Positions 5,221-62,059 of a stretch of 64,000 nucleotides of DNA are shown one piece after another. The translations under genes were made by a program, and so were the position numbers. The notes beneath the pieces were generated by a model. It did not search any database, was not told the origin of the DNA, and was given only the letters and a program-made list of their open reading frames with translations. Origin of the DNA: a virus; IMG/VR virus record IMGVR_UViG_3300032322_001107, positions 8,850 to 72,849 of that record, one strand, 5' to 3'. Positions within the stretch are counted from its first letter, which is position 1. Every line of letters starts with the position of its first letter.

Positions 5221-6183
5221 ATGGCTGAACCAATTCAATTTCCGCAGTCTGGACAAGGAGCCATATTAACTCCTTCAACCTTGGTTTCTCCCGATTTGCC
5301 AGAAGAGTGGGGTGGGCGACCCGCAGGAACATCCCGTAGAGCCATCCGAATGCAAGAAGATTGGGATAAGCGCAGAGCCGCAATGCTAGAAGAGCAGCAA
5401 ACCTCACAACAGATGGATGCACAGCGCAGGCAATTAGCTCTTCAAGAGCGGGATCAATTTATTCAAGATTCAGAATACAATCGCAAACTAAAAGAATACG
5501 AAGCGGAACAAGATATCAGGGGGCAGGCAGAAATGGAATCAAACAACATCCTTGATTGGCTAGGAGGCCGCGCTGTTGATAATCAAGGAAATCCCATTGC
5601 CAAACCAGACCCCAAAACTCCAGAATTTCAAACTGAATTTCTTCGCAGGCTTTCTGAAAATCCCCTTGGTGCAGAATTGAATAAGGGAATTGTAGATCAA
5701 TACATGGGCGCTAACAAAACCTATTTGGACGCCCAGCAAACCAAGCAAAGAGAAGAAGCCGCACTTCTGCGTGAAGAGAGGATGCTTGGTCGCCAATTGG
5801 CAGCAGAAGAAAGGGCCAAGGGCAGACAAATTGAAGCAGAAGAGAGGGCGCAAACACGCGCAGAAAAAAAAGCGGAAGAGTCACAAATAATTGGAATAGA
5901 TAAGGATATTCGCAGAGAAGAGCTTGCATTGGAAGATGTTGCGGCAAATCTTGGATTACAACGAGATCAGTCTGGAAGATTTAATATTGGCGGGCTTTCT
6001 GATACTCAGAAAAAAACATTTAGGGCGGCTGAGAATCGCGTTAGACTTTTGGAGCAAGACAGGGCACAATTGCAGGGATTTATGTTTGATACAGAGGCAG
6101 ATGCCCAAGCGGCAATTGAGGCCAAAACAGTTCCCAAGGGAGCTATTATATTTATTAATGGCAAAAAAGCTATCAACCGATAA
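5221..6183 (+). CDS. Putative internal virion protein, coiled-coil
   Basis: E/Q/R-rich helical protein with a C-terminal KGAIIFINGK cap typical of ejection proteins. Confidence 0.55.
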   Translation: MAEPIQFPQSGQGAILTPSTLVSPDLPEEWGGRPAGTSRRAIRMQEDWDKRRAAMLEEQQTSQQMDAQRRQLALQERDQFIQDSEYNRKLKEYEAEQDIRGQAEMESNNILDWLGGRAVDNQGNPIAKPDPKTPEFQTEFLRRLSENPLGAELNKGIVDQYMGANKTYLDAQQTKQREEAALLREERMLGRQLAAEERAKGRQIEAEERAQTRAEKKAEESQIIGIDKDIRREELALEDVAANLGLQRDQSGRFNIGGLSDTQKKTFRAAENRVRLLEQDRAQLQGFMFDTEADAQAAIEAKTVPKGAIIFINGKKAINR

Positions 6184-9100
6184 TGCCGATAGAATATCTA
6201 GATGATATCGAAGAGGATATTACAGAAGCGGCGGACACTACTCCTGTAGAGCAACCGCCCGTGGCTGGCATTTCTGAGCCAGTCGCACCAGAACCCTCTG
6301 GAGAGTTTGGCGGAAGGATTGAATACATCGAAGAAGAGCCTCTAGAAATAGAGCCTCCAAGAGATAATAGCTGGGACACACTCCGAGGTTTTGAGGTTTC
6401 GATGCGGCAAGTTCCGCAGTTGGCTTACGGGGTTGCGGGGTTGGTCGGTGAAACCGCAGAACAGCTTACAGGTTACGGAGAAAGTCTTCGGGATTTTGGA
6501 TTCAAGGGATACCAAGATTGGGCGCAAAGCATGGAGCCAATCTCCAAGGAAACTGACGATGTTACGGTGGCTTGGCAACGCGCAAAAGAAGGAGATGTTG
6601 GGGCTTTGGTGGATTGGGCACAATATGGAATTGGCTACGCTCTTGGACAGCTTGGAGAGACGGCGGCGGTTGCTGTATTGGGCGGGGTCGCTGGTGGTGC
6701 AGCGGGTGCGGCTGGTGGCCCAACAGCCGTTCCAGCGGCGGCGGGTGGCGCAGTAGCAGCGGCGGCTGGAAAACAAGGATTCAAGGCTCTTGCCCAAAAT
6801 CTTGTTGAGAAGGCCATTGCCAATCAGGCAACCAAGATTGTCACCAAACAAGCCCAAAAAGAAGGCGTTGAACTAACCGCCGAGCAATTAGCCAAACGTG
6901 CATCCCAAGAAGCCGTTAAGCGTCAGGCTGGAAAAGAGATTGGATCAAATGCCGCCATTTTTGCCAATGCTGTCGGTATGCAACTTGGTTCTATTTACGG
7001 ATCTGCCGAGGAACAGGCGCGAGCAGAGGGACGGGAACTTACGGGAGTTGACTTGGCTCGCATATGGGGAACTGGCGTTGCCACTGGCGGTATAGAAGGC
7101 GTTGTTGATAAATTTGGTTTGGATCTTTTGAAGGGCAAGCTTTCGGACAAACTTCCTGCTGGCAGGTTGGCTGGAGCAGCGGTGGCTGGCGGTATCGGAA
7201 CTGTTGGTGAGGCGGCAACCGAAGCCGTTCAAACCGTTGGAGAGCGTTTTGGTGCAGGAAAAGATATCCTTAGTGATGAGGCTATCAATGAATACATCAA
7301 TGCTTCCGCCTTGGGAGGTTTGGGTGGCGGGGCTATTGGTGGAGTTGGTGGATTTATCTCTGGCAACCCCAAGGAAAACGCCGCAGCCAAAGCCAAAGTA
7401 TCCTCTGAGGCAAATAAAGAGATTGCTCCCGCAAGCGCCGAAACCGTAGCCCGACAAGCCGATGCCGTCATTGCTGAGACAGTTCAAGAAACCCCCGAAC
7501 AGCGAGTGGCCCGTCTCCAAGAAGAAGCTACCGCAGCAGCAGGAATAGAACTAGAAGAAGAAGCTCCTGTTTCGGGGTTGCCCCCACAACCCGTCACCAC
7601 GCCCGTAGAACCCACAGCAGAAGGCGAGGTAGCCCCTGTAGAGCCAGTAGTTGAGCCAGCAGTAGCAGAGCCGCAGCCTGTCGCAGAAGTCGCGCCAGCA
7701 GACCAGCCATCGCCAAATCTTGCGCCCCGCGCCGAAGCAGCAGTGGAGGCACGGCCAGTCCGCCAAGAGGGCGAACCTATTGGAGACTTTCGCAATCGGA
7801 AGGATGCATGGGATGAACAATATGGCACAGATCGTCGCGGCGGGCGAACCCACAATGATGATGGAACTCCGTATCAGCCAACCGTTTTTGACGAAACAAT
7901 ATCACAGGTAAATGCGTCTGGTGTCATTGGCACAGATGAGGATGCGATGTCTGCCGCTATTGGAACAAGATCCGAACTGGAGGCTGGCAATGCCGTCAAG
8001 GATCTTGTGAATGCTGGATGGGTGTGGGATGCGGCACAAAACCGCATGGTCAACCCACAAAATCCCGAACAAAGACCCAGCGATGGACTCGTAGAAGCTA
8101 GGCAGGCACCAGCCCCTGTAACGCCAACTGCCCCCGCAGTGACTCCTCCCGCCGAGGTGGCTCCTGTTCCACAATTAGCACCAATAGAAGTAGAACCGCA
8201 AGTTGCCGCACAAAAAGCTATCGATGCCTCTAGACTTTCTGGAAGCACATTAGGCATGGACAGGGCCAATCAAGGAGTCGAACAGGCAAGAGAGGTTGCT
8301 TATGATGCGAAGAGAGAAGCATCACTTCCAAAAACACCGATTGATATTGCAATTCAAACATGGGAGGTGGCTGGTAATGAAACAAAATATGGAGAACCAA
8401 AATTTGCTTCTGGGGAGTTGGGCTTTGCTGTTTCAGGTGGGTACGATAAATCCACAAATGAAGTAAAACTTAGTAACAACCCAAGAGAATTTAGCTCCAC
8501 TTCTGGAGACTCAGCGTTGACCCCAAGATCTGTTGTGCGCCACGAACTTGGACATTGGGCATTGTTTAATGCGGCAGACAACGACTTGGTTCGTCGCCTG
8601 TTTGAGTGGGCTGACACCGCTGACAAAACTGGAATACTTAATCCTTGGCATGGAGGAAAAGCTGGAGTTGCTTATCCTAAAACAAAATTCGATTCACGCG
8701 ATGAATTGGTTTCTGAAGCATATTCCATATGGAAATCTGGAGGGAGTGTTCCAAATAATGTTATCCCGCTCTTACAGGATCTGGACGCACTTATTCCAAC
8801 CAATCTTCAAAATGAGGCATTGCAATTTGCAGATTCTCATTCAGAAAAACTTGGTGAACGCCCATCTGCTTCTCAGGTATTAAACGCGGATCGTCTACGC
8901 CGAGTAGTAAGAGCAGAACAAGCCCCAGAAGACGTTCCTTCCTTGGTGGATGCGGGGTTGGTCGAGGTGTATAAAGATCAACCAGTGCTTACCGAGGCAG
9001 GGATTGCCCAGTTGCCCGAAGCAGAACGCCCAAGGCTGAACCCCGAAGCCCGAAAGATCCAGATCGACACAGGATCAAACGAAGTAGTAGCCGAAGCCAT

Positions 9101-12100
9101 CGCGAAAAATCTTCGTATCGGGGTCGATCAGGTTGGAACTGGTGTGCGTATGCCCGCAGGCTGGACTCTGGTAGAGGATATCTATGTGCCGCCAGCCCCG
9201 CAGGAAGTTGTCCCAGAAGCGCCTGTTGCGCCAAAAGTTGAGCCAGAAGCCACTGAAGAAGAGCCAGCCAAAGTAGATCCTATCGACACGTTTAAGGGTG
9301 GTATTCGGGATTCGGGATTTAAATATCTAACATATTCAGATTTCAGAAGGGAAAACAAAACCCAAGACTGGGAAAAAGAAGGTGGGGTAACAATAGACGA
9401 AAGCTACTATCCTACGGCAGTTGTTGGCGATACCAGAGTAGCATTCGGAACCAACGGACTCTATGTATTCAAAAATCAAGTAAAAGAGCTTTACGAGTCC
9501 GATGTTGATGAAAACGGAAACACAATATTTACCATCCAGAGAATCGTTACCCCTGAAGACAAGCGTGGACAGGGGAGTGCGAGTAAGGCGCTGACCCAGA
9601 TCACAGATGCGGCGGACAAGGCTGGCCTAACACTCCAGCTTCAGCCCGCAGTAATCAGCACACTTGTCGGCAAAGGCGGCAAGGCTCTCAACGCAAAGCA
9701 ACTTGTGGATTGGTATAAACGAAATGGATTTGTCCAGAAGTTTGATGGCAGCGATGCCGTCCTTATCAGAAAACCAGTGACTTCAGCGGTTCCAGAGGTG
9801 ATTCCGCCAAGACCAGCAGATGTGGAGCCAGAACCCGCCGCAGAACAAGAGCTTCAATCCGTTGTCGATAAGTATCAAACATCCGAACCAACCGCTAGGA
9901 TGATACTTGCCAACCTTAATTTTGAAGCCAAAGAGGCTGGAGTTATTCCAGACGGGTGGGTTGTTGAAACAATAGGTGGTATAAAGACGGCACTTTCTCC
10001 CGTGTTTCAAAAAACAAGACGGGACATTCAAGTTGCAATTAGAAAATTTACAATACGTGAAAGAGGTGCATTGAGTGCTAGATTTTTCAAGGAAGGATGG
10101 ATTAATGAAGACCAAAGCAAGGAATATCTCCGTGAAGCAATTAGCCAAAGCTCTCAAGAGCGGGTCACAGCCGCCGAAGCCGAGGCGAACGAGAGATTCG
10201 ACGCTCTTGTTGAAAGAATTGTCGGAGAAAACAGAGCAAACATTTCAAGTGTTGTCGGAGAAGTATCAAAGCCGACAATTGATCTTGAGGCAGAAGAACA
10301 AGCCAGAGCAGAAAAGCCATCAGTATCTCCATCAGAAGTATTAGATCCGAATGAAATAGAGTTCATGTCGGCAAGACAGGCTTTGAAAAAGCTTGCCGAA
10401 TCCAATGTGATTAGTTTCAGCGATAGTGGAGCCAGCGGAAAAGCGCGGTGGAGATATACTGGAAAAATGGTAAAGCCTCAATATGTGAGGCTTCAAGAAG
10501 CGGCCTCTGTTCTTGCAAAAACTAATCTTCGCACCCTTGATGCCGAAAGAATAAACATCAGTGGAGATAAAAGCGGGAGAGCAAACAGAGCCTACGCTGG
10601 AGATATATTTATACCAAGAACAGAGGGCAGTGATAGACGCACTGCATATCTTGAACCATGGGTTTTGTTGCATGAGGTTGGGCACACCCTTACGTCTGAT
10701 GCATTTCAGAAATATGTTCCAGATAAGGGATTGATTGGTGCTGATTATTACAAACAGCTTAAAGACACACTAAAGAACAAGAAGGTTCCAAGAGAAGTAA
10801 GGCGGGCTATCACGCTTTACATAGACACAATCAAAGCACTTGGATTTGAAAAAGAATATTTCAAAAAGGGAGGACTTGCCAGCAACAACGCTGATCGCGG
10901 ATTGAGGAACGCAGCAGCAAGAACGTCAAATAAATTAATCAATCCGTTTACTGGAAATGAAATAACACGGGATGACATGTATGCGCTTGCCGACATGCAT
11001 GAGTTTTACGCGCAAGCTTGGAATAGCGAGTCCTTCCAAGACATTCTCAAGCAGATCAAGGTTGAGCCACAAAGAAGTGCATTCCAAAAGTTTGTAGAGA
11101 TCGTCAAAGACATTTTTGGATTTGAGTCGGACACAATGGCATATGCCGTGATCGATACCTCTCTCAGACTTGCCTCGCTTGAAGCACCAACAGACACTGG
11201 AGCTACTATTGAAAGCAGGATTAAAACGCAAAAAGAATTTCGCGCCGTCAAGGAGTTGCCGCGAACAAAAATGCGTTGGACGAATTTTGGCAACGGAAAA
11301 TACGGAGGAGACCGAGTCAAAATGTCCAGAAACAAGTTTGTAAAACTTGGATATGATATGGCCCATTTTACAATCACCAAAGGATACAAGGGTGTTTTCG
11401 GCGGTGGTGGTAATCAATGGTCTGTGCGTGTTTCCATAGAAGAGTTTTACAGCAAGGGTAAAAAAGCTAACCAGCTTTTGCCGCAGACTGAAATTTTTGT
11501 AAGGACATTTGATAGCAAGGCCACAGCCGAAGAATTTGCTGAAAGGCTTGCGTCTGATGTCAATGGGATGGTTAATGAAAAATACGGAGCCTTGAAGAAA
11601 GGGGCACCACAACCACCGACTACTCGCGGAAAGCCCGCTCCAAGACCAAGATTTGCCCCCGCCCCCGAAGTAAGAGAATCCCGCAGAGAAGACGCCATCC
11701 CCACCTTCTCCGAGGGAAGCCCCGAAGCCACAACCCTTTCTACTATGGCAGCAGCAATGGCCAAAGTGGATGGCGCATCCGAGGCCAAGCCAAACCCCGA
11801 AAACAAACCCACCTACAAGATCAGCGAGATAGCCTCCGTCTGGATGGATCAGGGTGGAGATGTTCGCCAACTCCAAGACCTTATCTCAGAGAATACCAAT
11901 CTTACCCCAACCAATGCAGCGAAGGTGGCCAATGCCATTGCCAAGCAATACGATATCCAGCAGTCCATTGCTACGGCCTTCATCGAAACCCAAACGGGAT
12001 TGTCTGTTGAGGCACTACCCGAAGGTGTAACCCTTCCCAAGGAGGTTGACCCTGATCGTCCGCGCCCCGTCATGCAACGCCTTTTTGATGTATTTATGGG

Positions 12101-15100
12101 TGTGCGCGTTAAACCAGTTAAGATTACTGGTGATGAAAAGGCATTGCTTAAAAGTCAAATTCGTCTAAAGGCCGCAGCCAATCGTGCGGCAAAACAGGAG
12201 CAGCAACGCACCGCAGACGAGGTTGTTGAGATTATCAAATCCATGGAGCTTCGCGGCCCCGTTCGTCCGAAACAAGCCCAAGCCCTTGCCAAACGTGCAG
12301 CCAAAGTCATTTGGACTAGCGAGAAGTCCATGGAGAGCTTTGTCGAATACGCTGCCAAGGTGGTAGAGAACGCCAACTATGATGCCGATCTTCGCGAGGC
12401 CAAGGCAGCACAGAAACGCGCCAAGGAACTTTCCAAACAGAAGAGAGTCGCTATGAGTCCGCAGCGCCTGATCTTGCAACAAATCGGAAATGTCGCAGTT
12501 AACAAGCTGGATGATCCGCGCATGTTTGCCGAGATGATCAACTACTACTTGCGTGGATTCAAGGATGTGCGTTCTCCTGATTATGTAGTTGTTCCTGATG
12601 AAGAAATCACGGGCTACATTTCTCAACTTGAAACAGAGTCTGTTAAGGATCAAGCCGAGGTAGAGCGCGAGACCAACGAAAGGCTTGCCCGCAAATACGA
12701 CCTTGATCCAAATACTATTCCAGAGTTGATGAGCCTTATCAACATCATTGAAGAGATTGAAGGCAGGGAGAATCGCGAAGCCTTGGAGTCCATCCTTACA
12801 GACAAAGCAATCGAAACCCAAGACGGGTTGCGCGGCTACGACACAACCGCGCTTACCAACACTCAAAAGAAATTGGTCGAGTCAATGCTTGGTGTGGATC
12901 TCAAATCCATCAATAACCAAGAGAAGCAAATGTTTATTCGTATTGCCAACAATATGATTTACAACAATCAGACCAATGGCGCGGAATACTTTGTGGCTAC
13001 AGCCAAGGGTCAGCAGAACGCTCGCAAGGCGGCACAGGATTCAAAAATGATCCAACGCAACAAGGCTTGGATTCCTCTTATTCCTTCATTCGGATCTTTG
13101 AAACTTCAGGAAACCCTTCGCAACTTCTCTTTGGAATTGCAATCGGTAGCCGACACCTTCCGCAACGTCTTCGGAAAAGACTTCATGGCCAAGGCTTACG
13201 AGATGATGGGCATGTTGGATTTGAACGAGGGATTCACCAAGGCCAATAACACCATTGATGAAATACAAGATCTGATGGCAGAGTTCCACCAAGGCAACGA
13301 AAAGACATACGGTGACGCAGCCCGCAATCAAGACGGCATTCTTTCTGAAGGTGTGGCTGGATTCTTGATCCAAGAATTTCCGTTCAAGGATGAAGCAACT
13401 TCAATTCAGCAACGCCGAAACCTGATCAATGAATATATCGCCAATGCCCGTGAGTCGCGCCAAAAAGACCGTGTGGCTATGGCAGATCGCGTTGAGGCAA
13501 TCCTAAACAAAGTTGATGGGGCTTCTGTTCAAGAGATCTTGAACAACATGAAGCGCGAATACCGCCCGAACTATGATTCTCTCATGTGGTATAAGGATGT
13601 TCTGTTCCCGAAATACAAAGACTTCCTCAAGCAGTTTGACGAGAACTTCAACGATCAGGCCAATAACTACGATAGCCCCAACTATCTTCCGATTGCCTTC
13701 ACTTCGGCTGGCCCAGCCTTGGCACTTGGCCCCGAAGACGTAAGTATTGCCAACTCAATTTCTCTCCAGCCCAAACAGTCGGTCTATACGATCAAGCGTC
13801 AGGATTACACCACGCTTCCAAAAGACAAGGACGGCAACCCTAAAGAAATTGAATTCAATCTTCGTCGCACCGCATTCAATAGCCTGTCAGACCAGATCAA
13901 TAAGGCTTACACCAACCCTGCTTGGCAGCAGATTTTTGCGTTTATGAAGACGCCAGAATCCATTGAGTTCTTTGGGGACAAAGCTAATCGTGATTTCTTT
14001 GTAGATCGCCTCAATAGGTTGCGAGCTTCCAGAGCAAGGCGTGGATCGGTAAGTGGAGGAGCTTTGGAAAAAGCACTTGATTCTTTCAGTATTATCTCCA
14101 GAAAGCTTGGCACTGGCATCGCGCTTGGTGGTGTATTCCAATGGATTAAGCAGCCCCCAGACCAGCTTCTTACGGCACTTGGAAGCGGAGGACGAGCAGA
14201 TCTTCTGGCTAAAAACATTGCTCCATCTACACAGAAAGCGGCTAGAGAACTATTAAATCAGTTTTCGATTGGAAGGCGCGGCGACTCATCTGCTGGTTAT
14301 AAATACATTAACCAGATGGAGGGCCATCAAAGCCGCATGGAGCGTTATTTCTCAGAAAGTAAATGGGAGCAGGCCAAGGAACAAGGCGGAAAGATTGCTG
14401 ATGTTTGGATGGTGGCTCTGAAGAAATCCGATTTCATTTCGGCCTCTGCTGCATGGATGACTTACTACGAAGGAGAGTTAAACAAGAACGACATCAAGAT
14501 TGATGATTGGGCCAAGGAAGCCGAGCTTGTCAAAACCGATCCTGTCAGACGTCAAGCGGCAGCGTATGCCGAGCAGATGACCGACATCTATCAGGGTTCT
14601 AGCGACCCGACATCCATGGCAACATTTGCCCAGAGCGGTAAAACTGGATGGGAGAACTTCACCAAGGCTTTGCTTGTTCCGTTCAACTCATTTGCCATCC
14701 AGCAACGCATGAGGCTTTACTCTGATGCCAGAGACGCACTTAATGGAACCAGTGGCGGCAAGGGAGGACTAGCTGGAACCATTGGTGGCCTTATCCTTTT
14801 CCATACCACAAAACGATTTGTTCTTCCTGTTATTTCTGGAGGAACCGCAGCCATTCTTTACGGAATGCTGGGAGTTGACATGGAAGAGCCAGACGAAGAG
14901 AAGCAGAAAGAGATGGCCGACAGGAACTGGCGTCAGTTCTTGGCCGACATTACTGGCAACTTGCTGGTTGGCGGAACCCCGCAGCTTGTTGAAAATAGGA
15001 CGATTGAAGCCTTTAACTATGCTTCTTACATGGTTGGTTTACAGCTTGAGAGCGAAACTGTCATGGATGAAAACGGAGAGATTATGTCATTTGACAAGTA

Positions 15101-15416
15101 TTCCAAAGAGCGTTCTCCATTCTATCGCTACAAGTCTTACGATAACGCCATGAGTCTTGGCATGTTTGATATCGGATTTGATCAAGCAAAAGAAACAGCC
15201 CTTCAAACCAAGATGCTGATGGATCGGGACGAGATGGAAATGTATACTCCAGAAGAACAGCGACTGCTTTACTTCTCCGCCCTTTCAGAATGGCTCTATC
15301 TCATGCGCCTCAATGACACAGACTTCGCTCGCATTGTGAAAAAGGCCCGCCGCGATATGATCAAAGCAGCCGAAGAACGCGAGAAGGAATTGGCCCGTAT
15401 CCGCGCTGGACGCTAG
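6183..15416 (+). CDS. Large polyvalent/internal virion protein (two zincin motifs, GNAT domain)
   Basis: 3077 aa. Gly/Ala hydrophobic N-terminal region, HELGH (8541-8555), GNAT motifs RGQGSASKAL...WYKRNGF (9561-9731), HEVGH (10671-10685). Confidence 0.8.
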   Translation: MPIEYLDDIEEDITEAADTTPVEQPPVAGISEPVAPEPSGEFGGRIEYIEEEPLEIEPPRDNSWDTLRGFEVSMRQVPQLAYGVAGLVGETAEQLTGYGESLRDFGFKGYQDWAQSMEPISKETDDVTVAWQRAKEGDVGALVDWAQYGIGYALGQLGETAAVAVLGGVAGGAAGAAGGPTAVPAAAGGAVAAAAGKQGFKALAQNLVEKAIANQATKIVTKQAQKEGVELTAEQLAKRASQEAVKRQAGKEIGSNAAIFANAVGMQLGSIYGSAEEQARAEGRELTGVDLARIWGTGVATGGIEGVVDKFGLDLLKGKLSDKLPAGRLAGAAVAGGIGTVGEAATEAVQTVGERFGAGKDILSDEAINEYINASALGGLGGGAIGGVGGFISGNPKENAAAKAKVSSEANKEIAPASAETVARQADAVIAETVQETPEQRVARLQEEATAAAGIELEEEAPVSGLPPQPVTTPVEPTAEGEVAPVEPVVEPAVAEPQPVAEVAPADQPSPNLAPRAEAAVEARPVRQEGEPIGDFRNRKDAWDEQYGTDRRGGRTHNDDGTPYQPTVFDETISQVNASGVIGTDEDAMSAAIGTRSELEAGNAVKDLVNAGWVWDAAQNRMVNPQNPEQRPSDGLVEARQAPAPVTPTAPAVTPPAEVAPVPQLAPIEVEPQVAAQKAIDASRLSGSTLGMDRANQGVEQAREVAYDAKREASLPKTPIDIAIQTWEVAGNETKYGEPKFASGELGFAVSGGYDKSTNEVKLSNNPREFSSTSGDSALTPRSVVRHELGHWALFNAADNDLVRRLFEWADTADKTGILNPWHGGKAGVAYPKTKFDSRDELVSEAYSIWKSGGSVPNNVIPLLQDLDALIPTNLQNEALQFADSHSEKLGERPSASQVLNADRLRRVVRAEQAPEDVPSLVDAGLVEVYKDQPVLTEAGIAQLPEAERPRLNPEARKIQIDTGSNEVVAEAIAKNLRIGVDQVGTGVRMPAGWTLVEDIYVPPAPQEVVPEAPVAPKVEPEATEEEPAKVDPIDTFKGGIRDSGFKYLTYSDFRRENKTQDWEKEGGVTIDESYYPTAVVGDTRVAFGTNGLYVFKNQVKELYESDVDENGNTIFTIQRIVTPEDKRGQGSASKALTQITDAADKAGLTLQLQPAVISTLVGKGGKALNAKQLVDWYKRNGFVQKFDGSDAVLIRKPVTSAVPEVIPPRPADVEPEPAAEQELQSVVDKYQTSEPTARMILANLNFEAKEAGVIPDGWVVETIGGIKTALSPVFQKTRRDIQVAIRKFTIRERGALSARFFKEGWINEDQSKEYLREAISQSSQERVTAAEAEANERFDALVERIVGENRANISSVVGEVSKPTIDLEAEEQARAEKPSVSPSEVLDPNEIEFMSARQALKKLAESNVISFSDSGASGKARWRYTGKMVKPQYVRLQEAASVLAKTNLRTLDAERINISGDKSGRANRAYAGDIFIPRTEGSDRRTAYLEPWVLLHEVGHTLTSDAFQKYVPDKGLIGADYYKQLKDTLKNKKVPREVRRAITLYIDTIKALGFEKEYFKKGGLASNNADRGLRNAAARTSNKLINPFTGNEITRDDMYALADMHEFYAQAWNSESFQDILKQIKVEPQRSAFQKFVEIVKDIFGFESDTMAYAVIDTSLRLASLEAPTDTGATIESRIKTQKEFRAVKELPRTKMRWTNFGNGKYGGDRVKMSRNKFVKLGYDMAHFTITKGYKGVFGGGGNQWSVRVSIEEFYSKGKKANQLLPQTEIFVRTFDSKATAEEFAERLASDVNGMVNEKYGALKKGAPQPPTTRGKPAPRPRFAPAPEVRESRREDAIPTFSEGSPEATTLSTMAAAMAKVDGASEAKPNPENKPTYKISEIASVWMDQGGDVRQLQDLISENTNLTPTNAAKVANAIAKQYDIQQSIATAFIETQTGLSVEALPEGVTLPKEVDPDRPRPVMQRLFDVFMGVRVKPVKITGDEKALLKSQIRLKAAANRAAKQEQQRTADEVVEIIKSMELRGPVRPKQAQALAKRAAKVIWTSEKSMESFVEYAAKVVENANYDADLREAKAAQKRAKELSKQKRVAMSPQRLILQQIGNVAVNKLDDPRMFAEMINYYLRGFKDVRSPDYVVVPDEEITGYISQLETESVKDQAEVERETNERLARKYDLDPNTIPELMSLINIIEEIEGRENREALESILTDKAIETQDGLRGYDTTALTNTQKKLVESMLGVDLKSINNQEKQMFIRIANNMIYNNQTNGAEYFVATAKGQQNARKAAQDSKMIQRNKAWIPLIPSFGSLKLQETLRNFSLELQSVADTFRNVFGKDFMAKAYEMMGMLDLNEGFTKANNTIDEIQDLMAEFHQGNEKTYGDAARNQDGILSEGVAGFLIQEFPFKDEATSIQQRRNLINEYIANARESRQKDRVAMADRVEAILNKVDGASVQEILNNMKREYRPNYDSLMWYKDVLFPKYKDFLKQFDENFNDQANNYDSPNYLPIAFTSAGPALALGPEDVSIANSISLQPKQSVYTIKRQDYTTLPKDKDGNPKEIEFNLRRTAFNSLSDQINKAYTNPAWQQIFAFMKTPESIEFFGDKANRDFFVDRLNRLRASRARRGSVSGGALEKALDSFSIISRKLGTGIALGGVFQWIKQPPDQLLTALGSGGRADLLAKNIAPSTQKAARELLNQFSIGRRGDSSAGYKYINQMEGHQSRMERYFSESKWEQAKEQGGKIADVWMVALKKSDFISASAAWMTYYEGELNKNDIKIDDWAKEAELVKTDPVRRQAAAYAEQMTDIYQGSSDPTSMATFAQSGKTGWENFTKALLVPFNSFAIQQRMRLYSDARDALNGTSGGKGGLAGTIGGLILFHTTKRFVLPVISGGTAAILYGMLGVDMEEPDEEKQKEMADRNWRQFLADITGNLLVGGTPQLVENRTIEAFNYASYMVGLQLESETVMDENGEIMSFDKYSKERSPFYRYKSYDNAMSLGMFDIGFDQAKETALQTKMLMDRDEMEMYTPEEQRLLYFSALSEWLYLMRLNDTDFARIVKKARRDMIKAAEEREKELARIRAGR

Positions 15417-29028: not shown

Positions 29029-29526
29029 TTATTTCTTTATTATCTCTTCACTAATGGCCAGTAGGTCTACTGTAGGTACTACGGTCATCAGATCTTGTCT
29101 ACCAGTTCTCTGGTAAAGTTTATAGACCTCTGGTTCGGCGCTGCGTTCATCTTTTTCTGTCAGCCCTTCGATGTAGGGCATGAGGGAACGTCTGTTAACG
29201 ACGATCCAGTAGCGTCTGGTTTCAAAGACGATATAGTCGGCCTCTCCATAGAGCCATCCCAGTTCTCCGTGGACGTTGCGGAGTTCGACGTAATGCATGC
29301 GGTCTGTGGGTTCGGGATTTTCCCGCTTCCACTTCTTCATCGCCTTAACATCGTAACGCTTACCGTCTGACTCCACATCCCAATGTTCTTTCATGTCCTG
29401 TTCAGGAGTTGAGAATGTAGGATTGTTTAGCAGTTCGGCAAAGCGTTGTTCGGCTTTTTGCCCGATTTCATAGCATGATTGGGTTGTTTCATAGCATGAC
29501 GGGGTTGTTTCGCAGTATGTATTCAT
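29029..29526 (-). CDS. PD-(D/E)XK family nuclease
   Basis: GQKAEQRF, HWDV...YDVK, YVELRNV.G..GWLYG. Confidence 0.7.
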   Translation of the reverse strand: MNTYCETTPSCYETTQSCYEIGQKAEQRFAELLNNPTFSTPEQDMKEHWDVESDGKRYDVKAMKKWKRENPEPTDRMHYVELRNVHGELGWLYGEADYIVFETRRYWIVVNRRSLMPYIEGLTEKDERSAEPEVYKLYQRTGRQDLMTVVPTVDLLAISEEIIKK

Positions 29527-29533
29527 AGAAGGT

Positions 29534-29740
29534 TTAGACGCTGTAGTTTTGGAAACGTTCAAAGTTTATTGCCATACACCGCATGGCCTTTCCATCATTC
29601 CCCACATCCTTGGCCCAGACAGCATTATCGCTCACCACCCCGTATTCTTGGAGGAAGTTCATTACTTTAACTTCGTCCTCAGATCGGGTTTTGATCCACC
29701 TCTCTAGCTTATTCCCAGTATAGGAGGGCATAGATACCAT
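29534..29740 (-). CDS. Hypothetical protein
   Basis: VMNFLQEYGVVSDNAVWAKDV pattern. Confidence 0.55.
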   Translation of the reverse strand: MVSMPSYTGNKLERWIKTRSEDEVKVMNFLQEYGVVSDNAVWAKDVGNDGKAMRCMAINFERFQNYSV

Positions 29741-30002
29741 AGGAGAATGTTCCCCAAAAGATAATGGCTAGGACGGATGCTGCGACTATTGTGGTTAGCT
29801 TCATTGTGGTTTGATTCGGTCTTTGATGACCTTGAGGGCTACAATAAGCATAGCCCCCCAGAAAACAATAGCTACAAATGAGTCAACCATTGAGATAATT
29901 AGTCAACCATCAGTCAAGATGCTTGCCTGTGATTTTCCACCAGCCGATAAACAAACAGGCCAGCATTGCGTAGATAGATCCTATAGCTTCCATAAAATAA
30001 AT

Positions 30003-30029
30003 AGGGAGGAGGCTAATTGCCCCCTCCCT
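30003..30029. terminator. Intrinsic terminator, possibly bidirectional
   Basis: AGGGAGGAGGC-TAATT-GCCCCCTCCCT, flanked by an A-rich tract on the left and a T-rich tract on the right. Confidence 0.75.
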
Positions 30030-30055
30030 TTGTTTCTGTAGTTTGAACCCGTTGT

Positions 30056-30196
30056 CTACAGAAAGAGATACGCAAACCAGCGGCACAACCCGAAACAGTT
30101 GGGTTTATCCTGCTTCGTTTTGAGTCGCGGGGCGTAGCCAATCCCCCCATAAGGGCCGTAGACAATACCGAATTCATTAGTGTAGTAGTTATTCAA
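30056..30196 (-). CDS. 46-aa peptide with perfect SD (type I toxin-like)
   Basis: AAAGGAGGTG upstream of TTG. MNNYYTNEFGIVYGPYGGIGYAPRLKTKQDKPNCFGLCRWFAYLFL. Own promoter and terminator. Confidence 0.5.
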   Translation of the reverse strand: MNNYYTNEFGIVYGPYGGIGYAPRLKTKQDKPNCFGLCRWFAYLFL

Positions 30197-30247
30197 TTCC
30201 TTTCCACCTCCTTTCTGTAAAAGAACGAAGCTGGAATTATGCCAGAA

Positions 30248-30406
30248 TTACTTGGTTCCGTAAAGCGTTACCCAAAGCAATCCCCATTGGGAGAAACAAT
30301 ATCCTCCCCAGACAACTGACAGGGCGTAGTTTCCGCGCACAGCTTGCTCTAGAGAGACAATACCATAGCAGATACCTACCGCCCCAATCAGCCAGATGCT
30401 AGTCAT
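30248..30406 (-). CDS. Small two-helix membrane protein
   Basis: MTSIWLIGAVGICYGIVSLEQAVRGNYALSVVWGGYCFSQWGLLWV..., 52 aa; ATG overlaps the upstream stop. Confidence 0.6.
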   Translation of the reverse strand: MTSIWLIGAVGICYGIVSLEQAVRGNYALSVVWGGYCFSQWGLLWVTLYGTK

Positions 30407-31353: not shown

Positions 31354-31603
31354 CAACTTGGAATCCTTTGCTTTCTAGCTTCTTAACCATAGAAGAAATC
31401 ATAGTGGACTTGAGCTTGCGTTCGTAAGCTTCTTTACTTCTCCACATCTTAACTTCCGAAATTAGTAGATCAATTGAGATAATCGGGCTTTCTCCCTCAA
31501 AGGTCTGATATTCAGCAAGTAGTTGCTTGATTTCATCAATCTGCGAGCAGGAAGGGCACGGTATGTAGTCTTTTCCATTACTTCCGTTGAGTAGGTCAAT
31601 CAT
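31340..31603 (-). CDS. Hypothetical protein (CxxC)
   Basis: Overlap-coupled ORF. Confidence 0.5.
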   Translation of the reverse strand: MIDLLNGSNGKDYIPCPSCSQIDEIKQLLAEYQTFEGESPIISIDLLISEVKMWRSKEAYERKLKSTMISSMVKKLESKGFQVDENN

Positions 31604-32174
31604 AGTATGGATCTGTTAATTTGGCTGGGGGGAACAGCGCAGTCTTTAGGGGGATGATTTTTTCGGGCATCAGGCTCCAGATGCGGGTGGTTTCGTAGCT
31701 CTTCTTGCACCACTTGCGATTGTTGAACATCCAGTGATAGCCCAAGATGTAGGCGTTAGCCATCTGGGCATAGCGTTTAAGATCTACGGGTAGTTTATTG
31801 CGGGCAAGCTTCCGCACAGACCTTTTCTCGCAATCCCACTCCAGTTCAACAACGAGTCGGATATACTTATCCACATATTCTACTTTTTTGCCAGCAAGCC
31901 ATTCATCCAACTTTCCAAGGGCGTCCTCCCTGACATCGTGCCACTTGGGTCTTTGGAGTTGCTGGTCTAGGTGACAGGTCTCATGGACAAAGACATCAAG
32001 CCATGTAGATAGCGGGCGTTTGGTGGCTATGCGTAACTCTTTGTCATCCGCCCACCCTACAGAGGTGGCTTTGCCCGTGATGAGGTATTTCTGGGGAACA
32101 AACGAAAGTTTGAACTGGCGGTATTTAAGGATGGCCCGCCCTAGAAAGTTGATTGTCGCCTGATCCATCGTCAC
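31596..32174 (-). CDS. HExxH metallopeptidase-like protein
   Basis: FVHETCHLDQ with a downstream ELEWDCE. Confidence 0.6.
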   Translation of the reverse strand: MTMDQATINFLGRAILKYRQFKLSFVPQKYLITGKATSVGWADDKELRIATKRPLSTWLDVFVHETCHLDQQLQRPKWHDVREDALGKLDEWLAGKKVEYVDKYIRLVVELEWDCEKRSVRKLARNKLPVDLKRYAQMANAYILGYHWMFNNRKWCKKSYETTRIWSLMPEKIIPLKTALFPPAKLTDPYYD

Positions 32175-33262: not shown

Positions 33263-33793
33263 TTATCGGCGCTTCTTTTGGGCGCGGATATTCTTTCCAG
33301 CCAAGGCTTGCTGGTAAGCTTCTTCGGTAATGACTCGGCCTCGGAGCTTAAATACCCAATTACGTTGGCGCGTAAAACTCCAACTTAGTCCCAAGGCTTT
33401 GAGGGTTGCCGCTGTCATTCCACCTTTAATTTTGAGGCTTTCAATAATCTTGGAGTCAATAACTCTGGTAGATGTAAGCTTGTCCCGCCTGTTTGGCTCC
33501 ACGGGATCAACCATGGGTTCGGGCTTTGGTCTGGAAATCTTCCGTTGAAACTTGCGGGACTCCTCGCGTTCCACAGCGTGGAAGTTCTTGTGGCACTTTT
33601 TACAGAGACAAATCAAGTCATCAAGGTGGTTTAGCTCATCTCCCTTATGCTCGTAAGTTCGATGGTGTGCCTGCAAATCTAGGGGGCTGTTACAGAGTTG
33701 ACAGCGGAATCCTGCTCGCTTTTTGACGGCCCTACTCACCTCTCGCCAGTAAGGAGTTGTAAGGTAGGCTTGGTATTGAAATTTCGTTATCAT
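33263..33793 (-). CDS. HNH endonuclease
   Basis: YLTTPYW, CQLC, HHRTY, LCKKCH. Confidence 0.85.
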   Translation of the reverse strand: MITKFQYQAYLTTPYWREVSRAVKKRAGFRCQLCNSPLDLQAHHRTYEHKGDELNHLDDLICLCKKCHKNFHAVEREESRKFQRKISRPKPEPMVDPVEPNRRDKLTSTRVIDSKIIESLKIKGGMTAATLKALGLSWSFTRQRNWVFKLRGRVITEEAYQQALAGKNIRAQKKRR

Positions 33794-36298: not shown

Positions 36299-36877
36299 TT
36301 ATGCGTATTTCCAAATTCTTCCCTTTGCCGTATTGCACCTTCCAGCAAGAACATTAGATACGCCCTTTCCGTATTTTTTAATTGCAAAACTGGTTGATTC
36401 AAATTTTTCAATATTTCCATTTTCATCAATTCCAATTACTGGTTTCTTCGTTTTTTGATTTCTAGATTTTTCGATGAACAATCTTTTGACTTCTGCTGGA
36501 TCTTTGGGGCGTGAATATCCATTCCGTCTAAAATATTCATTACAAGCATGGCAAATTCCCCTTCTTGATTGTCCGCGACACGGAGCGCCACAATTTTTAC
36601 AATGAGTATTAACTGGTCTCAATTTTGTTTCGCTTTGTTGCTTTGGAGTTGCCCAGCGGCAATTTTTCTTTTCGTAGTTTCCGTTTGGGTCAATTCTGTC
36701 CAAAGATGTTCCAAATGGTCTTGGCCCCATATCCTTGTCAAAATTTTTAAAAATCCTCCATCGATCACAAACCTTAATGCCTCTTGCGCCATACCATTTC
36801 CAAGATTCTCTTTTTGGGTTTGTGCAGCGTTGTATCATTGCTGCCCAACATGAATATGAAGATATTGTTTTAATCAT
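36299..36877 (-). CDS. Free-standing HNH homing endonuclease with NUMOD1-like C-terminus
   Basis: WAAMIQRC, YGARGIKVCDRW, SLDRIDPNGNYEKKNCRWAT; C-terminal TAKGRIWKY; AT-rich. Confidence 0.85.
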   Translation of the reverse strand: MIKTISSYSCWAAMIQRCTNPKRESWKWYGARGIKVCDRWRIFKNFDKDMGPRPFGTSLDRIDPNGNYEKKNCRWATPKQQSETKLRPVNTHCKNCGAPCRGQSRRGICHACNEYFRRNGYSRPKDPAEVKRLFIEKSRNQKTKKPVIGIDENGNIEKFESTSFAIKKYGKGVSNVLAGRCNTAKGRIWKYA

Positions 36878-36915
36878 GTTGCCACAATACATCCTATTAT
36901 GGCAGAAATCAAGAA

Positions 36916-37266
36916 CTATTTAATATTGTCTTCGTTTTCCTCTCCAAAAGTTATTTTATGAGAATCTATTATCCATCCACTTCTTCTAGCTTCTTTTGCA
37001 TTTTTATGAATTTCGTTATGACACAATCGACAAAGCGCGGCAAAAAGACTGTAGTCACAAAGATAGCGACCAACCCTGCCCGCCTTATGATGGATATCTT
37101 GACTCTTCGCCTTCTTACATTTCTCGCATATGGGATGCAGTGCCAAGTAGGCTTTTTTTACCTTTGTATACTCATTGTATTCACGCTGGCGTTTGGGGGA
37201 TGCGCTCCGCAACCTTCCGCTGCGCTTAAGTGGGGTTTTTGAACGAAGTGGAGTTTTTCTTGTCAT
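36916..37266 (-). CDS. HNH/NinG-like nuclease
   Basis: Basic N-terminus, CEKC, DIHHKAGR, LCRLCHNEIH. Confidence 0.75.
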   Translation of the reverse strand: MTRKTPLRSKTPLKRSGRLRSASPKRQREYNEYTKVKKAYLALHPICEKCKKAKSQDIHHKAGRVGRYLCDYSLFAALCRLCHNEIHKNAKEARRSGWIIDSHKITFGEENEDNIK

Positions 37267-37273
37267 ACCTACT

Positions 37274-37462
37274 ATGATCACTTGGAACGATTACAATAAT
37301 ACAAAGCCCGATGCAGAGGGAATCTACCTCATCAAAAACGATGAGTCAAACCCTCCATTAAAGTGGGCCTGCCACTATCACCCCCACCATGGATGGAGCG
37401 GGATTGGACATATCCTTGAACGTGTGATTAAGTATTGGAGTCCATGGCCCGATTCAAAGTAG
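37274..37462 (+). CDS. Hypothetical protein (DUF551-like)
   Basis: W...KP...G.YL...V.YWxxWP pattern. Confidence 0.6.
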   Translation: MITWNDYNNTKPDAEGIYLIKNDESNPPLKWACHYHPHHGWSGIGHILERVIKYWSPWPDSK

Positions 37463-38871: not shown

Positions 38872-40176
38872 ATGCAAGAAGTCATCTTTGAACCATCCGC
38901 CGAAACCGCCATCCTTTCCTGCCTCTGTCATGCCCCGTCAGAGGATCAGCGCGAGATCCTTTTATCTATAAAGGAAGATCATTTCTACCTTCAGGAGAAC
39001 AAGATCATCTTTCGGGCGGTCATGCGCTGTATCGCCAAGGGGATGCAGGCTGACATCATCAATGTTAAAGGAGAGATCGAAGCTGCCAACGAATACGATA
39101 TCGTTGGGGGTGAACAAAAGATTACAGAAGTTGCAACTTCATGTGTAGCCCATAACAACTGGAAGCGTTACTATCCCAAGCTGGAGGAAGCCCGCTACAG
39201 AAGGTCTCTGGAATACTTAGCCAATGACATGGTTCACAAAGCCAGAGATCGCGAGCTAAAGATTGAAGAACTCAAGAACTGGTCAGAGACCACCGTCATG
39301 CGGGCTGACTACGAGATGGATGATGGTAGTAAGCTTTCCATCAACAACGCCTTGGATCGCGCTGCCCAGAACATCGAATCCACGATTGCTGGAAAACCCT
39401 GTATCGGCATTCGCACTGGCATCACTCCATTGGATGACCTTCTCATGTTTGGCTTGCGCGGCGGGGACATGGTTGTATTGGCCGCAAGACCAGCGGTTGG
39501 TAAGACGGCAAGCGCCCTTCAGATTGCAGAAAACGTGGCACTTAACCAAAAGAAGCGGGTCTTGATCTTCTCTTTGGAGATGACCAGCGTTGCCCTCATG
39601 GAGCGCATGATCCGCTCGCGGGCGAGGGTGGGTGCTGCTGATATCCTTTCTGGTCGGGTGACTCCGCATCAGAAACAGTCTCTCGGACGGGCCGTGCAGG
39701 AAATCCAAGCATCCGAAATCATCTGCGATGACAGTTCGGCCAAATCCATTGGCTATCTCAAGGCGGTAGCTCGCCGCGCCCACCAGCGCACTCCGCTAGA
39801 CCTCATCATCATTGACTACCTCCAGTTGGTTAAGGGCGATAGTAAGCGCGGAAAAGACAATCGCGTGTGCGAGGTGGAAGAGATTAGCGGTGGCATCAAG
39901 GATCTAGCCAAGACCCTTAAGGTTCCAGTTTTAGTGCTGGCCCAACTCAACCGCGACCCAGACAAGCGCGGAGGACGCCCAAGCCTTTCAGACCTTAAAG
40001 GATCTGGAGCCATCGAACAGGACTCAGATATCGTCATTTTAATTCACAACGAAGAGGCGCAGGATCATACACAGATGCCGAATATAGAATTTATTGTAGC
40101 GAAACATCGTGACGGTGGAACAGGAGTTGCTAATATGGCATTTAACAAAGCAATAACTAGATTTGAATTGCCGTGA
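38872..40176 (+). CDS. dnaB: Replicative DNA helicase
   Basis: AARPAVGKT (Walker A), FSLEM, IIIDYLQL, LAQLNR, SDLKGSGAIEQDSD. Confidence 0.96.
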   Translation: MQEVIFEPSAETAILSCLCHAPSEDQREILLSIKEDHFYLQENKIIFRAVMRCIAKGMQADIINVKGEIEAANEYDIVGGEQKITEVATSCVAHNNWKRYYPKLEEARYRRSLEYLANDMVHKARDRELKIEELKNWSETTVMRADYEMDDGSKLSINNALDRAAQNIESTIAGKPCIGIRTGITPLDDLLMFGLRGGDMVVLAARPAVGKTASALQIAENVALNQKKRVLIFSLEMTSVALMERMIRSRARVGAADILSGRVTPHQKQSLGRAVQEIQASEIICDDSSAKSIGYLKAVARRAHQRTPLDLIIIDYLQLVKGDSKRGKDNRVCEVEEISGGIKDLAKTLKVPVLVLAQLNRDPDKRGGRPSLSDLKGSGAIEQDSDIVILIHNEEAQDHTQMPNIEFIVAKHRDGGTGVANMAFNKAITRFELP

Positions 40177-40670
40177 TAAAAAAGCATACATATCAAGAAG
40201 TTTCAAAAATATTAGATTACAACCCAAGCACTGGTCGATTTTATAGAAAAATTAATACATCGGCCAATGGAAGAACTGGACTTGTAAAAGGATATATCAA
40301 TAACGCTGGATACAGAAAAACCAGCGTTTTGGATTATCAATATTACGATCATCATTTGGCTTGGTTGCTACATTATGGCGAATGGCCGCAAAAACAAATT
40401 GACCACATCAACAATAAAAAGTCGGATAACAGAATAAAAAATCTTCGACTTGCTACCGTTAGCCAAAACGGAATGAATCGGTCTTTTCAAAAAAATAGCA
40501 TATCAAAAGAAAAGTGTATTCATTGGAAAAAAGAAAAGAAAAGGTATTTGGTCAGAATTGGCGTTAATAGAAAATATCGACATTTTGGATATTTTAAAAC
40601 AGTTGAAGAAGCAATTGTGGCTAGAGACAAAGCCATCAAAAAACTTCATGGCGAATTCGCCAAAGTTTAA
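40173..40670 (+). CDS. HNH-AP2 homing endonuclease
   Basis: IDHINNKKSDNRIKNLR plus an AP2 domain ending HGEFA; AT-rich. Confidence 0.9.
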   Translation: MIKKHTYQEVSKILDYNPSTGRFYRKINTSANGRTGLVKGYINNAGYRKTSVLDYQYYDHHLAWLLHYGEWPQKQIDHINNKKSDNRIKNLRLATVSQNGMNRSFQKNSISKEKCIHWKKEKKRYLVRIGVNRKYRHFGYFKTVEEAIVARDKAIKKLHGEFAKV

Positions 40671-59522: not shown

Positions 59523-60248
59523 ATGTTTAAATATATTCAATTAACCAAAGGACTATGGGCATTGGTTAACGATGCCGACTACGAGAAATTCAATCAATTT
59601 AATTGGTGTGCCCACCCTAATGGACATGGCAAAAAATTTTATGCCGTCCGAAGGTCAAAAACAGATGGAAAATCTAGGGAGATTTACTTGCACCGAGAAA
59701 TAATGGAAGCCCCACACGGAATGTTTGTTGACCATATTAACGGCGATACGCTTGATTGCCGCAGGGAAAATATGCGTTTAGTAACCATGTCCCAAAACGC
59801 AATGAACAGGAGGCTAAGAAGTGATAATAAACTTGGCGCTGTTGGCGTTTCTCAGCTTAAAGACGGAAGATATTTTGCTTACATTTCAATTAACGGAAAG
59901 CGCACAAAGCTTGGGAAGTTCGCCACACTTGAAGAGGCAAAAGCCGCCAGAGAGGCGGCAGAGGCCCAACACTATGGCGAATATGCCAGATCTAAGGATC
60001 TTCTGGTTGAGCAACTTCCAGAGGCCAAGCCCGAAGATAAACCATTCCAGCTTTACAGGAAAAGGGTCAATAATAAGAGTGGAAAAACTGGAGTATCATA
60101 TTTTCGTCCCATGAAGGCATGGAGAGCGAGAATTGTGTTGCAATACAAAGAAAAGACGCTAGGATACTTCAAGACATACGAGGAGGCTTGTGCGGCCCGC
60201 GAAAATGCAGAACGCCAATACTTTCCGCAATACTTTAAACAAAACTAA
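59523..60248 (+). CDS. HNH homing endonuclease with two AP2 domains
   Basis: IQLTKG..ALV, VDHINGDTLDCRRENMR, and two AP2 repeats. Confidence 0.9.
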   Translation: MFKYIQLTKGLWALVNDADYEKFNQFNWCAHPNGHGKKFYAVRRSKTDGKSREIYLHREIMEAPHGMFVDHINGDTLDCRRENMRLVTMSQNAMNRRLRSDNKLGAVGVSQLKDGRYFAYISINGKRTKLGKFATLEEAKAAREAAEAQHYGEYARSKDLLVEQLPEAKPEDKPFQLYRKRVNNKSGKTGVSYFRPMKAWRARIVLQYKEKTLGYFKTYEEACAARENAERQYFPQYFKQN

Positions 60249-61774: not shown

Positions 61775-62059
61775 ATGAAATCATTCTTTGCCAAAATCTG
61801 GGGGATTACCTCAAATGTCTTCAACTTCTTCCTTCCTGTGCTTCGGGAAATTGCCTCCTCTTCGGTAGCAGTCCTTCTCCCAATTGCCTTGGAGATTGTC
61901 CAGTCGCTGGCCTCTACCGACAAGACGGGAGCCGAAAAACGCGAAACCGCAGTCAAAAAACTCACTGCTGCTGCTAAAAAGCAGGGCGTCAGTGCCTCTG
62001 AATCTCTGATTCGTTTTACTGTTGAATCGGCGGTTCAACGCTACAAGCTGGAGCAATAA
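61775..62059 (+). CDS. Putative holin (LL-H-like)
   Basis: TGAEKRETAV...IRFTVESAV pattern. Confidence 0.6.
   Translation: MKSFFAKIWGITSNVFNFFLPVLREIASSSVAVLLPIALEIVQSLASTDKTGAEKRETAVKKLTAAAKKQGVSASESLIRFTVESAVQRYKLEQ

Follow-up and report, generated by a model that had tools for sequence, protein, structure and literature searches.

The stretch analysed here (the window) comprises 64,000 nucleotides of a virus, bases 8850-72849 of IMG/VR record IMGVR_UViG_3300032322_001107, which is 72,849 bp long, carries direct terminal repeats and is rated complete. On the minus strand it holds a 255-nt accessory segment (29992..30246), a whole expression cassette that runs from an extended -10 element to a U tract. 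The cassette comprises an extended, 12-nt Shine-Dalgarno (SD) element, AGAAAGGAGGTG, at 30205..30216 with its GGAGG core at 30211-30207, a 46-amino-acid open reading frame (ORF) at 30056..30196 that opens with TTG at 30196 and closes with a TAG stop codon at 30058-30056, and a predicted intrinsic terminator at 29994..30029. An original prediction had described this site as a self-contained unit of promoter, strong SD, small ORF and terminator, and had interpreted it as a type I toxin-like peptide gated by RNA structures that hide the SD. All four elements are present where they had been placed, and the motifs support their reading as one unit. The interpretation is partly supported, in that the type I toxin reading is not.

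The predicted sigma-70-type promoter at 30236..30264 (minus strand) is made up of TTTACG at 30264-30259, a 17-nt spacer and CATAAT at 30241-30236, as originally proposed, and a TG at 30244-30243 additionally makes the -10 an extended one, giving a match of 9/12. The -35 hexamer falls within the last part of the coding sequence of the neighbouring 52-aa ORF upstream and is outside the 255-nt segment, the first bases of which are occupied by TG-n-CATAAT. This element is retained as TG-n-CATAAT, TATAAT or CACAAT (TG-n-[CT]A[TC]AAT) in the close, L108-type and L011-type alleles of the cassette, and a promoter-like element is present within about 50 nt upstream of the gene in every lineage inspected. 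At the other end, the terminator consists of an 11-bp hairpin at 30029-30003, with 8 G-C pairs, and the tail AUUUAUUUU; the run ATTTATTTT directly follows the hairpin. It is the strongest hairpin on the minus strand within 27-33 kb and forms in every fold computed. In the close clade the changes in the hairpin are one-sided, with pairing retained in three pairs. Both sets of motifs are present and conserved, and the cassette is predicted to be an independent transcription unit.

The ORF is really coding, as indicated by both the polymorphism within the close clade and the alignments of the family. Over 12 unique ORFs of the close clade, the ratio of nonsynonymous to synonymous polymorphism (pN/pS) is 0.17, and the 25 variable sites are split 5/4/16 by codon position, with 16 at the third position. 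Relatives of two neighbouring proteins yielded 56 loci in viral contigs, while profile searches placed the family at 59 loci in viral contigs, with 16 representatives at 50% identity. At 90% identity and E <= 0.001 the family includes at least 210 clusters, all of them unnamed or annotated as 'hypothetical protein'. Most members have 42-58 residues, some have 63-94, and they share the signature GIVYGPYGxIGY...RW. Among 28 diverse members there is no variation at G10, I11, G14, P15, Y16, G17 and G20 and almost none at R24 and R39; in an alignment of 109 sequences P15, Y16, G17 and G20 remain invariant, and conservation of G10, G14, R24, R39 and W40 is 90% or more.

Searches for known relatives of this protein returned little. 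The 28 members had no match at E <= 0.01 in Pfam or PHROGs, and three of them had a very weak match to a holin PHROG (E = 0.13). A profile search of the PDB gave chance-level matches of 8-16 residues alone (E >= 0.52), and the ESM Atlas gave no usable match. A tblastn search with four members against 50,697 cultured-phage records returned nothing, or chance matches with E >= 2. A scan for the family motif covered 185,579 prokaryote species (GTDB) with one genome per species and found no convincing copy; the single match, of 13 residues in an actinomycete, was short and unconvincing. Longer fused forms of the family were not found, which is weak evidence, and no description of the protein family or of the SD pattern was found in the literature. 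The family had no name before, and all members found come from contigs of uncultured aquatic phages.

The family product is small, basic and without a predicted transmembrane segment. With a mean hydropathy of at least 1.6 in a 19-residue Kyte-Doolittle window (KD19) as the cut-off for a transmembrane segment, none of the 34 distinct family peptides qualifies, and the window protein scores 0.18 (row L058). Net charge ranges from 0 to +8 and is positive in 33 of the 34 members. A hydrophobic C-terminus had been noted in the window protein, and a short hydrophobic stretch is indeed there; however, it covers 13 residues, is interrupted by an arginine, falls far below transmembrane strength and is not conserved. 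In relatives it is replaced by basic (AKRKLL) or hydrophilic (SKEQGTREVSLNDT) tails, the tails of P0009 and P0010 being hydrophilic. AlphaFold models computed with 28 and 109 sequences place a possible beta-hairpin at residues 11-21 and a helix at 34-45, at low confidence (mean predicted local distance difference test, pLDDT, 65.7 and 64.5).

The most exceptional feature of the cassette is its SD. SD strength was calculated as the energy of anti-SD pairing to a generic 16S 3' tail. The SD of the window gene reaches -15.9 kcal/mol, and none of 75 other, crudely called genes of the window reaches -12 kcal/mol, although that comparison was generous in taking the best start within the first quarter of each ORF. 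With this choice of starts the median best pairing of the window genes is -5.6 kcal/mol. AAGGAGG occurs 6 times in the 64 kb, with 10.1 occurrences expected. The original description of the other leaders as SD-less, and of the SD here as unusual, is correct because the regions upstream of the phage genes have no purine-rich peak; the further statement that these leaders are AC-rich is not evident in base frequencies.

The same contrast is found throughout the family. All 34 distinct family cassettes carry the SD element, with a median of -15.7 kcal/mol and with 33 of them at -12 kcal/mol or below, whereas 392 neighbouring genes at the same loci (G+C 0.32-0.62) have a median of -3.7 kcal/mol and only 1.3% of them are at or below -12. 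When the cassettes are aligned on the SD, nearly all lineages have t-GAAAGGAGG-tg at 5-11 nt ahead of the start codon, and gaaaGGAGGtg is nearly invariant; in L074 the SD is a 15-nt run, AGAAAGGAGGTGATC. The very long SD is the one feature shared by the entire family, and some special use of it, such as the ribosome titration that the original prediction also suggested, is conceivable. The neighbourhoods around all 34 loci are essentially SD-less, as is the phage of the window, and this points to SD-poor hosts.

Upstream of the family gene in L075, L078, L086, L087, L093 and L096, GATCTTTGAAA occurs twice, about 27 nt apart. In this L075 group a C-rich run (CCTCC, or CCCCC in L086) lies ahead of GGAGG (GGGGG in L086), and it could be a covarying anti-SD hairpin, with one apparent compensatory change in L086, or part of a promoter. 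The C-rich stretch is probably upstream of the transcription start.

The terminator accompanies the gene less regularly than the SD does. A terminator-like hairpin with a T tract is present within 90 nt of the stop codon in 21 of the 34 family cassettes. The hairpin of the window was also compared with that of L104, an unrelated, integrase-bearing backbone with a G+C of 0.59 whose family protein is 37% identical and whose hairpin has no U tract. Between 30007-30033 of the window (minus strand) and L104:3163-3189, 26 of 27 nt are identical. The 5' arm of the hairpin resembles an SD (AAAGGGAGGGGG) and the 3' arm an anti-SD (CCUCCUCCC or CCUCCUUCCC). The conservation of the hairpin sequence between these two backbones suggests that it may have a role beyond termination.

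Comparison of related contigs indicates that the cassette behaves as a block. Relative to L053 and L013, it corresponds to an exact 255-nt indel (30246-29992) with AT microhomology at both ends, and its flanks are near-identical over the aligned 44 and ~20 nt. Without the 255 nt, the stop and start codons of the small genes on either side again overlap as TAATG. The junction is covered by 23 related contigs, of which 15 carry the close allele, four a diverged allele and four no cassette. The close cassette, 92-98% identical, is found in ~20 of the 56 loci, which belong to the 15 close-allele contigs, and in the four contigs with the diverged allele the same position is taken by an ORF with 45-47% amino-acid identity. 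The flanking regulatory DNA is better conserved between the alleles than the ORF, at ~81-88% identity in blastn segments. More widely, the family is spread over viral contigs of 32-62% G+C with differing neighbours. Many diverged members are from syntenic phages that share a 192-aa ORF with an HExxH motif, a dCMP deaminase and a 177-aa ORF, while in L088, L091 and L104 the gene directly follows the endolysin, and L091 and L104 have an integrase within ~2 kb. The cassette is thus gained and lost, or exchanged for a diverged allele, as one block.

The long SD, and usually the terminator, go with the gene in SD-less backbones of 32-62% G+C. The interpretation that we favour, and regard as reasonably probable from the sequence comparisons, is that the segment is an autonomous accessory expression cassette of the 'moron' type for a small, basic, soluble phage protein. 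The long SD would capture the 30S subunit directly through the anti-SD, which would give the mRNA high or privileged translation in cells where initiation is otherwise SD-independent. The terminator would insulate the unit, and local pairing in the leader, UCUUUU with AAAGGA, may tune access to the SD. The product would be soluble and would act by binding a host macromolecule, not as a membrane toxin.

Morons, a concept of Hendrix and colleagues, are reportedly autonomous promoter-gene-terminator insertions between adjacent phage genes. Like them, the cassette, a predicted independent transcription unit, lies exactly between genes that are otherwise translationally coupled, is present or absent in relatives and recurs in unrelated backbones. 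With regard to insertion, the cassette is missing from 4 of 23 contigs and its removal restores the TAATG overlap; with regard to spread, the family occupies 59 loci of 32-62% G+C with differing neighbours, and the hairpin is common to the window and L104. In contrast to morons, the cassette resides in a phage without an integrase in the window, has a maximal SD throughout its family and borrows its -35 from the neighbouring gene. Phage morons are the subject of PMC3594210. Elements of this kind are known; what is new is that throughout a family one gene of SD-less phages comes with a maximal SD. The genes of this previously unnamed family, which has at least 210 clusters, always carry such an SD while their neighbours have none, and this contrast provides a natural test case of whether and how SD-poor hosts use the anti-SD during infection. 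The cassette is also a compact, portable expression unit, for which the relatives lacking the 255-nt block are natural knock-outs.

Several points weigh against the moron-type interpretation. Classical morons are known mainly from temperate phages, and scans of the window genes revealed no integrase or lysogeny genes. A strong terminator within a co-directional array should be polar on the genes downstream. With 7 promoter-like sites in 6 kb and 6.5 expected, the promoter by itself matches no better than chance; like the promoter, the transcript's 5' end and its termination are predicted. The predicted accessibility of the SD moves between 0.16 and 0.75 when the assumed 5' end is shifted by 5 nt, and some structural gating is conceivable because of this swing. 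For truncated transcripts of the close clade, accessibility is 0.06-0.20, compared with 0.17-0.28 for shuffled sequences, a difference within one standard deviation. Moreover, confidence in the structure models is low (mean pLDDT ~65), and no function is assigned to the protein. Finally, a -24/-12-like motif, TGGCAT-N5-CAGCT, at 30231-30246 (minus strand) overlaps CATAAT and offers an alternative reading of the promoter.

Motifs of the form TGGCA[CT]-N5-[TCA][TCA]GC[TA], which have the geometry of sigma-54 promoters, are also found upstream of the family gene in lineages of very different G+C, namely L088, L091, L095, L099, L100, L104, L106, L107, L113 and L114. In most carriers the motif begins 44-52 nt before the start codon, and in L104 at -70. 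The L108-type alleles lose the GC of the -12 element yet keep TG-n-CATAAT, and in many lineages the sequence can be read as an extended -10 (TG-n-TAnnnT or CATAAT). The predicted promoter may therefore be of either class, sigma-70 with an extended -10 or sigma-54-like with -24/-12 elements.

A small variable ORF between a promoter and a stem-loop also recalls the promoter/stem-loop (PeSL) cassettes that shuffle modules in T4-like phages, as described in PMC4122927 and PMC2839356. As in those cassettes, the ORF lies in a plastic region and the flanking DNA is better conserved than the ORF itself. Unlike them, the promoter-leader and the hairpin of the window each have a single match with up to 3 mismatches, and no PeSL-type repeats were found in 26-36 kb. 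With a single copy of the leader and of the hairpin, the phage has no repeated PeSL network.

The original prediction centred on an RNA switch, in which the end of the ORF, UAUCUCUUUCUGUAG (30056..30070), pairs with the leader at 30220-30205. The complementarity is real, since leader 30220-30205 and ORF end 30070-30056 can form 15 bp with one bulge and a duplex of -16.4 kcal/mol. It is modestly unusual, in that comparable complementarity between leader and body is matched by 2.8-3.6% of random windows of 166-203 nt from the genome. However, the pairing is not predicted to hide the SD. The minimum free energy (MFE) structure of the 236-nt transcript, at -81.2 kcal/mol, does not contain it, and a fold constrained to include it has -75.0 kcal/mol, which is less stable than the MFE by 6.2 kcal/mol. 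In the ensemble the pairing is a trace (probability ~0.07), and the SD core is unpaired with a probability of 0.63-0.74. For full-length RNAs with 5' ends at 30229, 30224 and 30219, the predicted accessibility of the SD is 0.69, 0.18 and 0.48, respectively, and it is 0.26 for RNAs that end at the stop codon. In the closed states the partners of the SD are the local UCUUUU of the leader (30224-30219) and codons 5-6 (30182-30179). None of the SD bases has the end of the ORF as its likeliest partner in any of the three full-length folds, which differ in their 5' ends.

Conservation of the switch was sought in homologous cassettes, where covarying stems had been proposed as a check. Across 14 sequences of the close clade, 11 of the 15 pairs are invariant, three change on one side to a wobble, and one is altered in unpaired cells only; compensatory changes number zero. 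L058 and L064 lose the outer pairs without compensation, and L011 and most other lineages lack the pairing, which is absent outside the closest clade. When the duplex of SD region and ORF tail in the 34 cassettes, close clade included, was compared with random windows of the same loci, it was no better than these (mean z -0.42). SD accessibility exceeded that of shuffled sequences in 19 of the 34 (Wilcoxon p = 0.12), with no systematic difference. Two alternative pairings had been described in addition, and for both the complementarity exists and the conservation does not. The first, UUUCUGUAG with CUACAGAAA, arises because the 3' untranslated region (UTR) contains, at 30033..30041, CUACAGAAA, a direct repeat of the leader's UACAGAAA; the L108-type allele lacks the CUACAGAAA segment, and its hairpin starts 5 nt past the stop codon. 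The second, GUAGACAA with UUGUCUAC, is used by the MFE structure and involves the Ile-Val-Tyr codons, and it is impossible in the diverged alleles. A long-range clamp between SD and ORF end is therefore not supported as part of the mechanism.

Long-range complementarity between leader or SD and downstream sequence is characteristic of type I toxin mRNAs of the hok/Sok and tisB/IstR types. The small ORF of the window, its possible leader/SD-downstream complementarity and its compact layout with its own terminator resemble such loci. In a type I toxin-like reading a toxic peptide would be silenced by the pairing of ORF end and SD, and the alternative pairings would open it. The 15-bp complementarity (-16.4 kcal/mol), with leader-body complementarity in the best 3-4% of random windows, agrees with this, as does the fact that the pairs of the close clade remain pairable in 99% of cells, three of them by shifting to wobble. 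Additionally, transcripts ending at the stop codon are predicted to have a mostly closed SD (0.26 in the window, 0.06-0.20 in the close clade). In contrast to type I systems, however, there is no transmembrane toxin, since a transmembrane segment is lacking in 34 of 34 peptides and the hydrophobic tail gives way to basic or hydrophilic ones, and there is no favoured or conserved fold that occludes the SD in the window: the pairing stands 6.2 kcal/mol above the MFE at a probability of ~0.07, is not the best partner of the SD for three 5' ends, and has zero compensatory changes, uncompensated losses in L058 and L064 and a mean z of -0.42 over the 34 cassettes. Nor was a convincing antisense promoter seen. 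The sole promoter-like site nearby on the plus strand, 29971-29998 (9/12), would start transcription inside the hairpin, and such hits are at chance level. Described type I loci are mostly chromosomal, plasmid-borne or in prophages, and the family was not found in the genomes of 185,579 prokaryote species. The type I toxin-like reading is thus largely refuted and must be considered very improbable, which removes a false lead. The same layout of promoter, short ORF, terminator and co-directional downstream genes could instead belong to a leader-peptide attenuator, in which translation of the ORF governs read-through of the terminator into the downstream small genes, and the stop codon does lie in the 9-bp hairpin UUUCUGUAG:CUACAGAAA upstream of the terminator. 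An attenuator is nevertheless hardly to be expected where conservation is that of a protein, in its N-terminal and central motifs, across unrelated contexts that differ in their downstream genes. Every fold contains the terminator, and none contains an anti-terminator pairing that would compete for its 5' arm. The L108-type allele lacks the 9-bp element, and relatives that have no cassette rely on direct TAATG coupling to express these downstream genes.

Two further readings concern what the product or its mRNA would act on. The closest parallel to the SD is that of rpsU, encoding bS21, in Flavobacteriales and other Bacteroidota, where an extended SD stronger than -13 kcal/mol is described for one gene per genome, monocistronic and with a short leader (PMC9976891). 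Bacteroidota ribosomes that lack bS21 expose the anti-SD according to PMC9976891 and PMC13000453, and PMC7797042 is a further reference on extended SDs in this phylum. Like rpsU, the window gene has the sole exceptional SD (-15.9 versus below -13 kcal/mol) of an SD-less set, its mRNA is predicted to be monocistronic with a short leader, its product is small and basic, and it falls within the threshold given in PMC9976891. Unlike rpsU, it is phage-encoded and its product is not bS21; neither bS21 nor bS18, which occlude the anti-SD themselves in an autoregulatory loop, is indicated by Pfam, which gave no match for the window protein or its 28 relatives. From this parallel one might suppose that, in hosts which normally hide the anti-SD or make no use of it, the mRNA is built to seize the 16S 3' tail, either for selective translation by a sub-population of ribosomes with a free anti-SD or as an anti-SD decoy, and the ribosome could also be the target of the small basic protein. 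Such a reading, the main rival of the favoured one but in our view unlikely, would account for the single exceptional SD in an SD-less genome, repeated in all 34 lineages, for pairing of -14 to -16 kcal/mol, the class of rpsU (below -13) in PMC9976891, for a basic protein, and for hairpin arms that resemble SD and anti-SD and are conserved in sequence across unrelated backbones. It is weakened by the nearest cultured matches of the flanking genes, which are mostly cyanophages and not Bacteroidota phages, by the lack of bS21 in the phage (the best match to PF01165 has 13 bits, below the cut-off) and by the lack of similarity of the protein and its 28 relatives to ribosomal protein families in Pfam; moreover, a strong SD may merely give high expression. 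That the mRNA, with its 11-15-nt complement of the 16S rRNA 3' tail, is a phage device to exploit or manipulate the free anti-SD of the host, either through translation by ribosomes with an exposed tail alone, as a readout of ribosome state, or by occupying the tail, with a protein that acts on the ribosome, is distinctly unlikely. A regulator associated with lysis or the membrane, for instance one that modulates the action of holin or endolysin and has its own timing of expression, is quite improbable. It would fit the position of the gene immediately downstream of the endolysin in the three backbones L088, L091 and L104, the KD19 values of 1.56-2.36 in the flanking tiny ORFs and the weak holin PHROG matches of 3 of 28 members (E = 0.13), but those matches are not significant, no member has a transmembrane segment, and the holin (61775-62059) and amidase (62624-63217) of the window are ~32 kb from the cassette on the other strand. 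Late-operon ends are common sites of accessory insertion, and for that reason adjacency to the endolysin is weak evidence.

The genes of the window are those of a tailed phage and include a primase, a DnaB-type helicase, a dCMP deaminase, a RusA-like resolvase, the large subunit of the terminase, tail proteins, a holin, an amidase and several HNH endonucleases. The cassette sits within the block for replication and nucleotide metabolism. Similar DNA in public runs was represented by 20 DNA rows, from lake-water or unspecified metagenomes, and by no RNA run, and the phage is uncultured, from a lake and lytic-looking. The 2.5 kb of DNA around the cassette had no match among cultured-phage records, and neither did the terminase large subunit (TerL) by tblastn against the 50,697 records. 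The matches of the primase are spread over many host groups, and the flanking genes match records of cyanophages, Flavobacterium phages and pelagiphages at 33-41% identity. Searches of the whole window gave 0 matches in Rfam at gathering thresholds and 0 tRNAs or tmRNAs. The phage represents a deeply novel lineage.

Four tiny ORFs of 52, 27, 29 and 31 aa flank the cassette on the minus strand (29709-29993 and 30248-30406). Their hydrophobic windows are at or near the transmembrane threshold (KD19 1.56-2.36), and they are conserved in relatives and tightly coupled through TAATG overlaps. The 192-aa ORF at 31596-32174 (minus strand) has an HExxH-like motif (VHETCH in translation) and no family match, and its homologues co-occur with the family gene at 18 of the 34 representative loci, some of them on large AT-rich contigs. 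Downstream of the cassette, the 177-aa ORF matches 'histidine kinase in conflict contexts' in Pfam weakly and below the cut-off (E = 0.0013), and two copies of a tandem 21-nt repeat, 90% identical, lie inside this ORF at 29466-29507. Elsewhere in the window, a 3077-aa ORF at 6183-15416 (plus strand) has no Pfam or PHROG match, and the same holds for ORFs of 437, 814, 758 and 439 aa. The window also contains five HNH-endonuclease-like ORFs, three on the minus strand (33263-33793, 36299-36892 and 36916-37281) and two on the plus strand (40173-40670 and 59523-60248), an unusually heavy load of homing-type nucleases for 64 kb.

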